Below, in pieces: positions 33,955-64,000 of a stretch of 64,000 nucleotides of DNA. Origin of the DNA: a virus (Duplodnaviria; Caudoviricetes); IMG/VR virus record IMGVR_UViG_3300017766_003100, positions 154,388 through 218,387 of that record; one strand, given 5' to 3'. The first letter of the stretch is position 1, and every line of letters begins with the position of its first letter. Below the pieces are notes generated by a model, which saw only the letters and a list, made by a program, of their open reading frames with translations, ran no database searches and had not been told where the DNA came from. The position numbers and the translations under genes were made by a program.

Positions 33955-33986
33955 TTTGGAAATTATAAAATGAGTTTGTAATTTTG
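33955..33986 (+). promoter_or_regulatory. Bacteroidota-type promoter, cassette 1
   Basis: TTTG-N20-TAATTTTG. Confidence 0.85.
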
Positions 33987-34248: not shown

Positions 34249-34280
34249 TTTGGAAATTAGAAAAGTAGTTTGTAATTTTG
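34249..34280 (+). promoter_or_regulatory. Bacteroidota-type promoter, cassette 2
   Basis: TTTG-N20-TAATTTTG. Confidence 0.85.
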
Positions 34281-34517: not shown

Positions 34518-34549
34518 TTTGGAAATTAGAAATTTAATCCGTAATTTTG
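34518..34549 (+). promoter_or_regulatory. Bacteroidota-type promoter, cassette 3
   Basis: TTTG-N20-TAATTTTG. Confidence 0.85.
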
Positions 34550-53732: not shown

Positions 53733-54173
53733 ATGGAAGATAAAATTAAAAAAACAGTAATGGAAGAAGCTAAGAAAAGAGGTTTAATCCTAGAACAAGA
53801 ATCAGATAAAGGTGATTTTGTTGAAATGATATCATTGTTATTTCATTCAAGAACTCAAGCACACACATTTCACCTTCAAACTGAATCATTTGCCGAACAT
53901 AAGGCATTAGAAGGTTATTATGATGGAATTGTTGGTCTCATAGATAGTATTACAGAATCGTATCAAGGTAAATATGGTATTGTTAAAGGTTATAAAAACT
54001 ATCCTTTAGTTGAATATAAAGGTAATGAATCAACTGTATCTTTCTTTCATAATGTTTGTGATAAAGTAACCAAACTTAGGGATTGTTGTAAAGATAGTTG
54101 GTTACAGAATGAAATTGATAATGTCTGTACACTTTTGAATCAAACAATATATAAACTAAAATACTTAAAATAA
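53733..54173 (+). CDS. tagged ferritin-like (DUF5856/Dps-like) protein
   Basis: LFHSRTQAH.FHLQT.SFAEHKAL..YY...ID...ESYQG.YG; LQNEID. Confidence 0.8.
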   Translation: MEDKIKKTVMEEAKKRGLILEQESDKGDFVEMISLLFHSRTQAHTFHLQTESFAEHKALEGYYDGIVGLIDSITESYQGKYGIVKGYKNYPLVEYKGNESTVSFFHNVCDKVTKLRDCCKDSWLQNEIDNVCTLLNQTIYKLKYLK

Positions 54174-55997: not shown

Positions 55998-57634
55998 AAT
56001 TAAAAGAAAAATATTACCATAAAAAAATCCTAAATTTATTAAAGGAATATAATGATAATTTTGGATTGTTGAATGAATCCAAAAAAGAAATCCTAATGGA
56101 TAAGTTGGGATTAAGTCCAAATATAGCTGAAGTATTCGATGAAGTTTGTGGAAAATTAGCAATATGGTTGGCTAACAAATATCTAAAATATTATTATGAA
56201 GATAATAAAACTAAGTCAAACCCTGGTGTTGCACATAAAGATATGTTAAAATGGGCACAGCATCGTATAAATTCAATGACCACATCTACACTCAGAAGAG
56301 TATTACCTGGAATAATGGATTATATCCGAGTAGGATTAAATGGTAACAAAAGTAGTTTGGATGATTTATCAATAGTACAAATTGCTTCACTATCAACTCA
56401 ATGGCACGACCAACTAAATGTTGGTCAAGGTAAGATAAATTATATTGAAAATGCTCCAATCCTAATTGATTTTAGAAATGAAGATGGTGAAGGATATTAT
56501 TGGGCTGACCTAAATGTTAAAAACTCACCTGAAGAATGTGAGAGAATGGGACATTGTGGAAGAAGTTCTTATGGTTATCTATATTCATTAAGAAGTGATA
56601 GAGTTTTACCAGGAGGAAAATATAAGTTAAATAGAAGTCATTTAACTGCTGCAATTGGAAGTAATGGGATATTATATCAATTAAAAGGTCCTAAGAACTC
56701 AAAACCAAAAGAAGAATATCATCAATATATCGAACCTTTATTCTATACTTTAGGTGGTGGAGGAGAAGAAGAGGATTATTTAATCCAAGGTTTTGGAACT
56801 GAATATGGTGCTGACCAAGATTTCAAGTTATCTGATTTACCTGATGTAACAATTAGAAAAATATATAACGATAGACCTAAATTATTTAATACAAGAGGTT
56901 TAAAAAGAAAGTTGGGTAAGATGGGTATTATTGATTTTGAACCTACCCAAACAAAATTTGTTTTGGAACTATCAGCAAATGAGCTTGGAACATATTTACA
57001 GGGTGATACTTATTCAACTCGTAGATATAAAAATAGTGAGGGTAAAGAGATGGTTAAAAGAGAAAGTTGGTATGAACAAATAATGTCCGATTCAATTTGG
57101 GATGATGTTTGGCATATGGATTGGGGAAGTGATTGGAAATCAGCACTTGATTACTATGTAAACCCTGAAAATGAAAAATTAATTGAGTCAATCATTAACG
57201 AATGGATTAGTAAAAGTGGTGATGAAGTTGATGAAGATATATCTTTGGAGGAAAAAATAGAACAATATGATAATAATGACGATATCCGTAACGCTTTGAG
57301 TTCAACAGAAAACGATATTGCTGGTAATGAATATGTTGATTATTTAAGAGACACCTTAAAATCAGCTTTAGAAGAATATGGTAGTGTATTTGAATTCAGT
57401 GATGAGACAATTAAGATACAAATTGATTTGAAAGATTATACTAATAATATTGATGAGGACACTCTTGATGAATACTATGAGAATTGTTATGATAATCCTA
57501 GTTGTGTATTTAATGAATTATTAAGTGAAGGAAGTATTGATTTTCCAAAACCTAGTTTCAATGACAATTGGTATCCTGATATAGATAGACATATATATAA
57601 TCAATATTTAACAGATAGATTAAACGAAATATAA
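55994..57634 (+). CDS. tagged protein with PcfJ-like domain, paralog B
   Basis: Same YYWADL...EECERMGHCGRSS...YSLR...QLKGPKNSKPKEEYH block. Confidence 0.75.
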   Translation: MKLKEKYYHKKILNLLKEYNDNFGLLNESKKEILMDKLGLSPNIAEVFDEVCGKLAIWLANKYLKYYYEDNKTKSNPGVAHKDMLKWAQHRINSMTTSTLRRVLPGIMDYIRVGLNGNKSSLDDLSIVQIASLSTQWHDQLNVGQGKINYIENAPILIDFRNEDGEGYYWADLNVKNSPEECERMGHCGRSSYGYLYSLRSDRVLPGGKYKLNRSHLTAAIGSNGILYQLKGPKNSKPKEEYHQYIEPLFYTLGGGGEEEDYLIQGFGTEYGADQDFKLSDLPDVTIRKIYNDRPKLFNTRGLKRKLGKMGIIDFEPTQTKFVLELSANELGTYLQGDTYSTRRYKNSEGKEMVKRESWYEQIMSDSIWDDVWHMDWGSDWKSALDYYVNPENEKLIESIINEWISKSGDEVDEDISLEEKIEQYDNNDDIRNALSSTENDIAGNEYVDYLRDTLKSALEEYGSVFEFSDETIKIQIDLKDYTNNIDEDTLDEYYENCYDNPSCVFNELLSEGSIDFPKPSFNDNWYPDIDRHIYNQYLTDRLNEI

Positions 57635-59514: not shown

Positions 59515-60355
59515 AAACATTATAAGAAAAATCTTGAATGAGTTCGTAAGTGAACAATTTGATGATTATGGTGATATTAAAAACGTTAAGAAATTAAAAA
59601 AAGACTGGAGAAAAGATGTTATTTCAGGTACTGAAAGAGGTATTACCAAAATCAAAACAGGATTATCAGGAAATAGTATTAACGATATTGTTAATGATTT
59701 GGTTGATAAGTTTGGTATTAAAAAAATCAAATATGCTGGAAGAGGTTATTATGGAATGGCCTTTTTAGTTGATAACAATAAGATATTGAAACTAACCCAA
59801 GACCAAGATGAAATCAAAGGGATTGAAAAAATAGTAGGGAAAGAAATACCAGGTATTGTTAATTATTATGGATACGAATTTTATCCCAAATATAACATTT
59901 ATGGTATTTTAATGGATAAAGCCAACCCAATTCCAAAAACAGAAAAAGATATTTACACAACGATGTTTTATATGGGTGCAAACTATTCTGATTCTGATTT
60001 TTGGGATGATTATGATGATGAGTTTTTGGATAATTTGGTTGATAGATTGGAAAGTCCTGAACCTGAAGATGAACTCCCACCAATTGGTATCAGTGGTTAT
60101 TATAGTAATGACGAAGATGATGAGGAAGATGAGGAGTTTGATGATGACGATGAAGACAATTATTACATACCAAAAAGAGAAAAACCAACTCCAAGTGTAA
60201 GTATAACATTTGATGAACTAATAGACTATATTGAAAAATACAGAGAGTTATTATTGAAGTTGGAAGAAAACAATATATCAACAAAAGATTTACACGGAGA
60301 AAACATTGGACAAATAAATGGAGAATTAGTCCATTTTGATGTGATGGCATTTTAA
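59504..60355 (+). CDS. tagged protein kinase-like enzyme with acidic insertion
   Basis: GRGYYG Gly loop, ILKLT, ILMDK hinge, DLHGEN catalytic loop, HFD. Confidence 0.8.
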   Translation: MVNKNIIRKILNEFVSEQFDDYGDIKNVKKLKKDWRKDVISGTERGITKIKTGLSGNSINDIVNDLVDKFGIKKIKYAGRGYYGMAFLVDNNKILKLTQDQDEIKGIEKIVGKEIPGIVNYYGYEFYPKYNIYGILMDKANPIPKTEKDIYTTMFYMGANYSDSDFWDDYDDEFLDNLVDRLESPEPEDELPPIGISGYYSNDEDDEEDEEFDDDDEDNYYIPKREKPTPSVSITFDELIDYIEKYRELLLKLEENNISTKDLHGENIGQINGELVHFDVMAF

Positions 60356-60357
60356 TA

Positions 60358-60376
60358 ACTTAACAATAAGTTAATA
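60358..60376 (+). promoter_or_regulatory. shared operator-like box, copy 2
   Basis: ACTTAACAATAAGTTAATA; TATGAT at 60412. Confidence 0.7.
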
Positions 60377-60434
60377 CAAAAGAATTTACTATATCAACTA
60401 TTTTTCCTATTTATGATTTGTCAAAACCATAAGT

Positions 60435-63637: not shown

Positions 63638-63669
63638 TTTGGAAATGTCAATTGGTGTGTCTATTTTTG
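63638..63669 (+). promoter_or_regulatory. Bacteroidota-type promoter for the tRNA-like RNA
   Basis: TTTG-N20-TATTTTTG ending 9 nt before the acceptor stem. Confidence 0.85.
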
Positions 63670-63678
63670 TAAAAAATT

Positions 63679-63791
63679 AGTCCTGTGGCGGAATTGGTAG
63701 ACGCACATCGGCAGGTGATTTAGTTTGAGGATACAGCGGCAGTCGAGGTCACAAACATATACAAATACAGGTTCGAATCCTGTCAGGACTA
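63679..63791 (+). tRNA. atypical 113-nt tRNA-Leu-like RNA with non-canonical enlarged central region
   Basis: Acceptor AGTCCTG/CAGGACT, Leu-type D arm GCGGAATTGGTAGACGC, T arm ACAGG-TTCGAAT-CCTGT, discriminator A; 62 nt between D and T arms without a canonical anticodon arm; no encoded CCA. Confidence 0.8.
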
Positions 63792-63808
63792 CAAAAAATT
63801 AATAGACT

Positions 63809-64000
63809 ATGAGACACAACATAATTAAAACAGACAACTATCTACTTGTTGTCGATGATAGTAAGATTACGGAAGGTGATTGGCATATTAAGATTAACAA
63901 AAATAAAGTTGGCAATTATCCTTTAGATTCGGTAAATCCTAATAAAGGTAGATATAAAAAAATCATAGCACATTTACCTTTAAATGGAGCTTCCATTCTC
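63809..64000 (+). CDS. 5' part of hypothetical protein (runs off window end)
   Basis: MRHNIIKTDNYLLVVDDS...KKIIAHLPLNG, open to the edge. Confidence 0.65.
   Translation, partial: MRHNIIKTDNYLLVVDDSKITEGDWHIKINKNKVGNYPLDSVNPNKGRYKKIIAHLPLNGASIL

Follow-up and report, generated by a model that had tools for sequence, protein, structure and literature searches.

The window analysed here is a stretch of 64,000 nucleotides from the DNA of a giant lake phage, and close to its right end lies a 113-nt unit resembling tRNA-Leu (W unit), whose parts are summarized with the other features in Table 1. The layout given in the preliminary description, namely a 7-bp acceptor stem, a 5-bp T stem, a Leu-type D loop, an A discriminator and 62 nt separating the D arm from the T arm, was confirmed in all its coordinates and features. 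The Rfam tRNA model aligned end to end with the unit at a score well above chance (cut-off 29 bits, E=3e-5 over the 64-kb window); the acceptor, D and T arms were modelled and 57 nt were bridged at the place of the anticodon arm. ARAGORN reported zero tRNAs in the window, either by default or with the intron option, and only a forced run (80% threshold with introns) returned a tRNA-Leu(CAG), whose 'intron' is 28 nt long and which has an A.G mismatch besides G32 and G33. The blank default result and the skipped 57 nt are in accordance with the earlier claim that no canonical anticodon arm is present, and the minimum free energy (MFE) fold places a 4-bp stem with a tetraloop there. The structural elements of a tRNA (acceptor stem, D arm with G18G19, T arm with its T-loop) are all found in the unit; the 5-bp anticodon stem, 7-nt loop with U33, Leu anticodon and R37 of a decoding tRNA-Leu are not. 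No Rfam family besides tRNA scored above its cut-off on the unit, and no ribozyme or riboswitch was matched in the centre at E<=10. The G+C content of the unit is 48% against a window average of about 29%, and its D arm differs at 2 positions from that of a canonical tRNA-Leu(UAG) in a related phage (G002).

Table 1. Position of the tRNA-Leu-like unit, its parts and the associated features (window coordinates unless a genome is named)
Feature	Position	Strand	Remark
W unit (tRNA-Leu-like, 113 nt)	63679..63791	+	Rfam RF00005 40.9 bits; 12 distinct homologues
Acceptor stem, 7 bp, AGTCCTG with CAGGACT	63679-63685 with 63784-63790	+	3/7 pairs doubly compensated among homologues
Discriminator A73	63791	+	
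D arm, tRNA-Leu type (A14 A15, G18 G19, A20a), loop AATTGGTAGA	63688..63704	+	
Centre, 62 nt from D arm to T arm	63705-63766	+	
Hairpin 1 (4-bp stem, GGCA loop), at the anticodon-arm place	63706..63717	+	MFE and consensus fold
Hairpin 2 (34-nt interrupted helix, second GGCA loop), at the variable-arm place	63723..63756	+	11 pairs
T arm (ACAGG / TTCGAAT / CCTGT), 5-bp stem	63767..63783	+	4/5 pairs with compensatory changes
Promoter TTTG-N20-TATTTTTG (-33 TTTG, -7 TAnnTTTG)	63638..63669	+	9 nt before W unit
Direct repeat AAAAAATT, 8 nt, left copy	63671..63678	+	Window vs G001 alignment
Direct repeat AAAAAATT, 8 nt, right copy	63793..63800	+	Window vs G001 alignment
Downstream ORF, open at window end, co-transcribed with W unit	63809..64000	+	G001 orthologue behind same promoter without unit
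Dps/ferritin-like ORF holding a 23-nt complementary site	ORF 53733-54173; site 53874-53896	+	
Tandem promoters before small ORFs	33955-33986; 34249-34280; 34518-34549		Same class precedes shell units in related phages
142-146-nt unit	G002 56311-56452; G003 60267-60412 (- strand numbering); G005; G006 70290-70435		

The unit had been credited with a strong promoter of its own. The promoter itself is real in form and position; the TTTG / TAnnTTTG form is one which we take to be of Bacteroidetes type, and the pattern occurs 11 times in the window against 4.5 expected, a number reached in none of 100 shuffles. The ownership did not hold. G001 is the nearest relative examined (25% of the sampled 31-letter words of the window are common to both), and at the corresponding site it carries the identical promoter and the orthologous ORF with no unit, the two genomes being separated by a clean 122-nt indel flanked by AAAAAATT. 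Since this identical promoter directly serves the ORF of G001 in the absence of the unit, it does not belong to the unit. In this arrangement the W unit is a passenger in the 5' leader of the downstream ORF, and its 3' processing would leave the right repeat in place, so that the A-rich leader of the ORF would be almost as original. The units in general appear to be self-contained cassettes which come and go between phage genomes. At a distance of about 600 bp from this site, G001 has other units, the first having the same shell with a different 74-nt centre and the next having a different shell, AGTTAGG/CCTAACT. Elsewhere in the window, three tandem copies of a conserved promoter of the form TTTGGAAATTAGAAA...GTAATTTTG, about 280 nt apart, each stand before a small ORF.

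The homologues of the W centre were analysed for conservation and covariation. A 20-nt word of the centre matched 13 metagenome and 6 viral contigs, that is 19 besides the window, and three differently anchored searches gave the identical six viral contigs without any loop variant of the centre. The units in the 19 contigs are 107-112 nt long with the 62-nt centre nearly unchanged, although the exact-word searches by which they were gathered bias the set to conserved copies. The copies lie between unrelated flanks; in about half of the contexts the unit is part of a phage tRNA array and in the others it stands alone. No neighbouring ORF family was found to recur across the contexts within +/-3.5 kb, sharing of ORFs being limited to the near-identical loci L104/L121 and two isolated locus pairs. 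Most copies have the acceptor AGTCAGG/CCTGACT, which is a double compensatory change with respect to that of the window. The alignment of 12 distinct W-unit sequences revealed both-side changes in 3 of the 7 acceptor pairs and 4 of the 5 T-stem pairs, with 99.7% of the cells paired. The observed values were equalled in none of 500 shuffles on any measure, and slid registers gave at most 2 pairs changed on both sides compared to 7 observed. The substitutions in the centre fall within the two GGCA loops or preserve pairing, for example G.U to A-U.

The outer stems drift by compensation and the centre is fixed; a random insertion without conservation would give the reverse. This bears directly on the earlier suggestion that the unit looks more like repurposing than decay, and the suggestion gains from it, as the 19 other contigs combine a near-invariant centre with covarying outer stems; none of the W-centre copies is a normal tRNA-Leu with a non-conserved random insert. 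The pattern indicates that the W centre is under selection. Two truncated copies (L110 and L111) were also observed, which means that the cassettes decay as well; one of them is without the 5' acceptor and half the D arm, and the other turns into unrelated sequence past the second GGCAG.

The fold of the centre was then compared between methods. The MFE and consensus folds are concordant on both hairpins, which are connected by two single-stranded stretches; the pair probability of hairpin 1 is about 0.7 and its sequence variation lies in the loop, while in hairpin 2 three of the 11 pairs vary on one side only with pairing kept. Both helices named in the preliminary description are present. 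GUUUG/CAAAC belongs to the MFE fold with a pair probability of 0.81, and GUGAUUU/AGGUCAC is a suboptimal alternative (-25.6 vs -27.8 kcal/mol, 2.2 worse, probability 0.17). Each of them is 100% pairable in 12/12 homologues, and two conformers of the centre are possible. No compensatory changes were found in the helices of the centre in the 12-sequence alignment because the centre barely varies, and the centre fold is therefore a prediction; the W unit as a whole folds no better than its shuffles (z = -0.99). A further helix between alignment columns 31-36 and 59-64, prompted by the changes C34/G61 to U34/A61, was rejected at a cost of 7 kcal/mol and a pair probability of 0; these changes both sit in tetraloops and probably mark one clade. 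The centre has a TTG-started frame, and stops occur in all three frames within UGAUUUAGUUUGA; a reading as a short ORF or mini-tmRNA was set aside on inspection, as this frame enters the T arm and nothing comparable is seen in the other centres.

The occurrence of the unit in RNA libraries was assessed by aligning contigs of four such libraries to the W region. One contig each from estuary, wetland and fish gut studies spans the unit with its full centre, the AGTCAGG acceptor and no splicing. Two of the contigs are 118 nt long, starting 4-5 nt upstream of the unit and ending 1 nt past A73, and the summed depth of the 3' shell is high (217 and 2034). In six RNA-labelled libraries of five studies, 63-75% of the sampled words of the unit are present; only two of these libraries are on record as RNA, and the label of the others is a guess, so that they may be DNA. 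The flanks of the window unit are without cover in the RNA libraries, which is uninformative, as the relatives carry other flanks. This evidence consists of assembled contigs in which DNA carry-over is possible; contigs cannot prove transcription or ends, so presence in the RNA libraries counts as a hint only. The unit is probably expressed, and the near-coincidence of the 118-nt contigs with its limits is a weak hint of a discrete RNA.

The shell of the unit has a much wider distribution than its centre. A 25-nt word of the 5' shell was found in 26 viral-contig stretches and a 22-nt word of the 3' shell in 53. With a relaxed detector, 82 distinct units with 46 centre families were counted in the sequence set analysed, which means at least 46 unrelated centres. 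The middle differs in each of the Leu-type units, whose total length extends from 70 to 212 nt. Seven genome fragments carry 1 to about 10 units each, with one in G004 and one in the window, and orthologous centre types recur, conserved, between genomes. A constant shell holding unrelated inserts which are individually conserved is what would be expected of a natural tRNA scaffold, and it is what these 82 units reveal. The units often lie within tRNA arrays, and several of them are 8-11 nt downstream of a conserved TTTG-N19-TAATTTTG promoter. Canonical tRNAs occur in the same genomes; G002 has 23, including a normal tRNA-Leu(UAG) with another acceptor. Some centres hold T-loop-like hairpins or fragments of other tRNAs, such as second T arms and acceptor pieces.

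The 3' shell was absent from 185,579 species genomes of bacteria and archaea (one per species), one contig excepted. This contig (L102, JBIKJV010000434.1), 32.9 kb of a lake Phycisphaerales MAG, is identical to the IMG/VR viral contig L028, with which it has length, sample number and three shell copies in common, and it is probably a phage contig mis-binned into the MAG. Nothing similar was found among the GenBank phages, where the only match was a 35-nt T-arm match to a crAss-like tRNA-Arg. On these sequence comparisons the shell is phage-specific. The family occurs in uncultured freshwater (lake) phages, the hosts of which are probably Bacteroidota. No description of a modular family of this kind was found in the literature searched.

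Several other classes of unit were observed. A second shell type, with the acceptor AGTTAGG/CCTAACT, its own D arm, the same T arm and a purine-rich centre having GGAGG-like runs, directly follows a Leu-type unit at L001 2298-2406 (G001) and at about 978-1087 of G006. Units of 91 nt (L034, L035, L047, L053, L060, L062 and L064) have the same acceptor and T arm and a near-normal tRNA look; the anticodon stem covaries, its loop has UAU and the variable arm is long, and this class may be an unusual AUA-reading tRNA whose amino-acid identity is uncertain. The 142-146-nt unit is conserved in four genomes and its centre has two extra T-arm-like hairpins; another unit, L023 (127 nt), has one such hairpin. 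The higher-GC viral contigs L017, L019 and L027 carry mini shells with a centre of 18-34 nt, which are in effect tRNA-Leu with the anticodon arm reduced to a tiny hairpin. Identical 107-nt units about 570 nt apart at 56397-56503 and 56968-57074 of G003 represent a recent tandem duplication of the cassette.

The explanation that we favour, with a confidence somewhat above even, is that the W unit is a functional, expressed tRNA-like non-coding RNA and not a decoding tRNA, and that in a large phage family the top half of tRNA-Leu is used as a chassis for unrelated modules. The constant chassis would consist of the acceptor stem, D arm, T arm, A73 and elbow contacts, with the anticodon and variable-arm region swapped for one of many unrelated structured modules. 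It would recruit host RNase P, 3'-end trimming and the CCA-adding enzyme to yield a mature RNA, and this would apply to units of tRNA arrays as much as to the W unit in its 5' leader. It would also confer tRNA-like stability, and it would probably be a substrate of LeuRS. The module would provide the specific activity; that of the W unit would be made up of the two GGCA-capped hairpins and the invariant single strands, and its sequence-level invariance suggests binding to a conserved host or phage factor. Among the options put forward earlier was a scaffold releasing a small RNA; the scaffold fits best of those options, but no sign of small-RNA release was seen.

The leucine identity of the unit was examined against the rules for the E. 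coli enzyme. E. coli LeuRS needs A73, A15-U48, G18G19, A20a and the D/T-loop contacts, and the anticodon and variable arm are dispensable, as variants lacking both are still charged (PMC9976931, review). The W unit has the full E. coli-type set, namely A73, A15-U48, G18G19, A20a and U8:A14. Among the Leu-type units U48 and A14A15 are each present in 57/57 and G18G19 in 52/57, A73 in these units being imposed by the search. With these positions kept in the shell, leucylation of the W unit by LeuRS is plausible. An unlikely explanation built on this is that the unit is a non-decoding leucine acceptor, in which the LeuRS-charged shell would either serve as a dedicated donor of aminoacyl groups or titrate LeuRS or EF-Tu, and the centre would merely bar the ribosome. 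It draws on the retained identity elements and on the high-GC mini shells. In unrelated genomic contexts, however, the conservation of the centre equals or exceeds that of the stems; the centre is not a neutral spacer, and 46 different conserved centres are hard to explain if the acceptor alone matters. Non-Leu D arms occur in sister units having the same acceptor and T arm, and the conservation of the shell as a whole therefore cannot be explained by LeuRS. Searches of five phage fragments for a CCA-adding enzyme, a Leu/Phe-transferase and a class I synthetase domain gave no match; as the fragments are 22-60% complete, this does not show that such genes are absent. The lack of a transferase match also speaks against an aminoacyl donor, the B. 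thetaiotaomicron control of that search being likewise unmatched.

The unit may also be read as a decoy that draws off a tRNA-targeting defence enzyme of the host or another host factor binding tRNA, in which the centre mimics the tRNA-Leu anticodon loop (GGCAGGU, UUUAGUU, GGCAGUC); we regard this as rather improbable. [quoted passage not shown] None of the motifs, however, lies within a canonical 5-bp stem and 7-nt loop with U33, anticodon mimicry is absent from the other centres, the W centre is invariant and not fast-evolving, and the 8-mer match is weak. There is an equally small chance of a modular 'aminoacyl-RNA' platform, in which a leucylatable, non-decoding top half would carry interchangeable modules and each charged RNA would be sent to a specific partner. 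The partner would be, for example, a ribosome state, an enzyme or an RNA, and the W module would be one of dozens of addresses.

The possibility of a trans-acting antisense or guide RNA, in which a single-stranded part of the centre would pair with a phage mRNA (the Dps/ferritin-like gene or the in-frame stop of DHH), was analysed by complementarity. Positions 63708-63730 form 23 uninterrupted pairs with the Dps site (19 Watson-Crick, 4 G-U), the pairing score of 50 being reached in none of 300 shuffles (mean 31.6, sd 2.9, maximum 43), and all four departures from perfect complementarity are G-U-compatible transitions. Against this, searches of 141 and 166 kb of G002 and G007, which have the same centre, yielded nothing that exceeded the shuffles, and the Dps homologue of G007 is without the site. 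In the 75%-identical Dps homologues 3 of the 4 site changes break pairing, 2 of those 3 being synonymous, and for 16 other units no significant target was found in their own genome fragments (all z<3.6). The pairing with the DHH stop was rejected, as it is a gapped 11-mer and 108 ungapped runs of >=11 exist on the + strand alone, which puts it at chance level. The word 'guide' in the preliminary description is not supported: target complementarity conserved among the homologues, as expected of an antisense or guide RNA, was not found, and a guide function has only a slim prospect. The Dps complementarity is statistically unusual and not conserved, and stands as an unexplained, lineage-specific feature.

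A true tRNA-Leu (CAG or UAG) from which a short intron is removed post-transcriptionally is very improbable. The lowered-threshold ARAGORN run with introns places the intron of its tRNA-Leu(CAG) call at 63717-63744, and the putative splice junctions come after a repeated CGGCAG motif. Splicing, however, would leave an RNA with G32 and G33, an A.G mismatch that is invariant and a variable region of 17 nt lacking structure, the only informative substitution (L105) disrupts the exon stem, and the homologue L103 would read UGG, which is not a Leu anticodon. No bulge-helix-bulge or self-splicing motif was seen on inspection, and 28 nt is far below the size of group I or II introns. In the RNA libraries all the contigs have the full centre, and none is joined across the predicted splice sites. 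The reading as a recombination scar or a decaying tRNA pseudogene in a tRNA-rich phage genome, having no function of its own, would be in keeping with the nested tRNA pieces of some units, the truncated copies and the dispensability of the unit at the W site in G001, but it is scarcely credible in view of the perfect stems with compensatory evolution, the invariance of the centre across unrelated contexts, the dedicated promoters in relatives and the presence of the unit in RNA libraries.

The non-coding RNA which we favour has counterparts among known systems, and of the classical ones the T4 species 1 and 2 RNAs and the tRNA-like domain of tmRNA are the closest. The T4 species 1 and 2 (rnaC, rnaD) are likewise small stable RNAs (139 and 119 nt) of a phage tRNA cluster and not decoding tRNAs, and the 3' end of rnaC is a tRNA-type T arm with an acceptor-like stem. 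The likeness is architectural; no sequence relation to the W unit was seen on inspection. In contrast to the W unit, rnaC has a long 5' extension and no Leu-type D arm was identified in it; T4 has two such RNAs compared to dozens of inserts in a constant shell. Inspection of rnaC (L132 10909-11047, - strand) revealed a canonical T arm, CCGGG TTCGAAT CCCGG, and in Rfam only a sub-threshold tRNA-Sec match. To our knowledge, the function of the T4 species 1 and 2 RNAs is still unknown. The canonical tRNA-Leu(UAG) of G002 has nearly the same D arm, A73 and type II layout as the W unit; it differs in having a 5-bp anticodon stem, the loop UUUAGGA, a short variable hairpin and the acceptor GCCUGAG, whereas the W unit is without any decoding feature.

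The tRNA-like domain of tmRNA (SsrA) has a tRNA upper half (acceptor and T arm), is processed by RNase P and aminoacylated, and carries a non-tRNA body in place of the anticodon arm (PMC3985003, PMC3929946), an arrangement which the W unit resembles. Unlike tmRNA, the W unit has U-A at 3:70 and thus no G3.U70 alanine identity, and its D arm is full; it lacks pseudoknots and a reading frame for a tag, and its length is one third that of tmRNA. An ARAGORN search for tmRNA was negative and no Rfam tmRNA match was obtained at E<=10. The closest functional analogy to the proposed working of the unit is the engineered tRNA scaffold of Ponchon and Dardel, in which a foreign structured RNA at the anticodon region is processed and stabilised as a tRNA (PMC3753655). 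Those scaffolds are man-made, whereas the W family is natural and evolving, with a Leu type II chassis and the insert often at the variable-arm position. YrlA (PMC4201824) and the B. cereus tRNA-Other (PMC3399842) are also RNAs outside translation that contain a tRNA-like module; tRNA enzymes recognise them, and they act in regulation or tethering (PMC4201824, PMC3399842). Unlike in the W unit, the ends of YrlA form a Ro-binding helix and not an acceptor stem, and its gene accompanies rsr (PMC4201824), while tRNA-Other retains a cloverleaf with an anticodon arm (PMC3399842).

The genes of the shell family are invisible to ARAGORN and are therefore missed in the annotation of phage tRNA regions. 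We know of tRNA-like non-coding RNAs only as isolated cases (tmRNA, YrlA, T4 species 1 and 2). The shell family points to a general viral strategy in which the host machinery of tRNA maturation and stability, possibly with LeuRS, would be borrowed to deploy small structured RNAs. The laboratory tRNA scaffold has its natural counterpart in this family, which would yield a catalogue of compact evolved RNA modules. The aminoacyl-RNA platform, if true, would mean that phages have generalised the principle of tmRNA. The family may also help with the 50-year-old question of the role of the stable RNAs in phage tRNA clusters.
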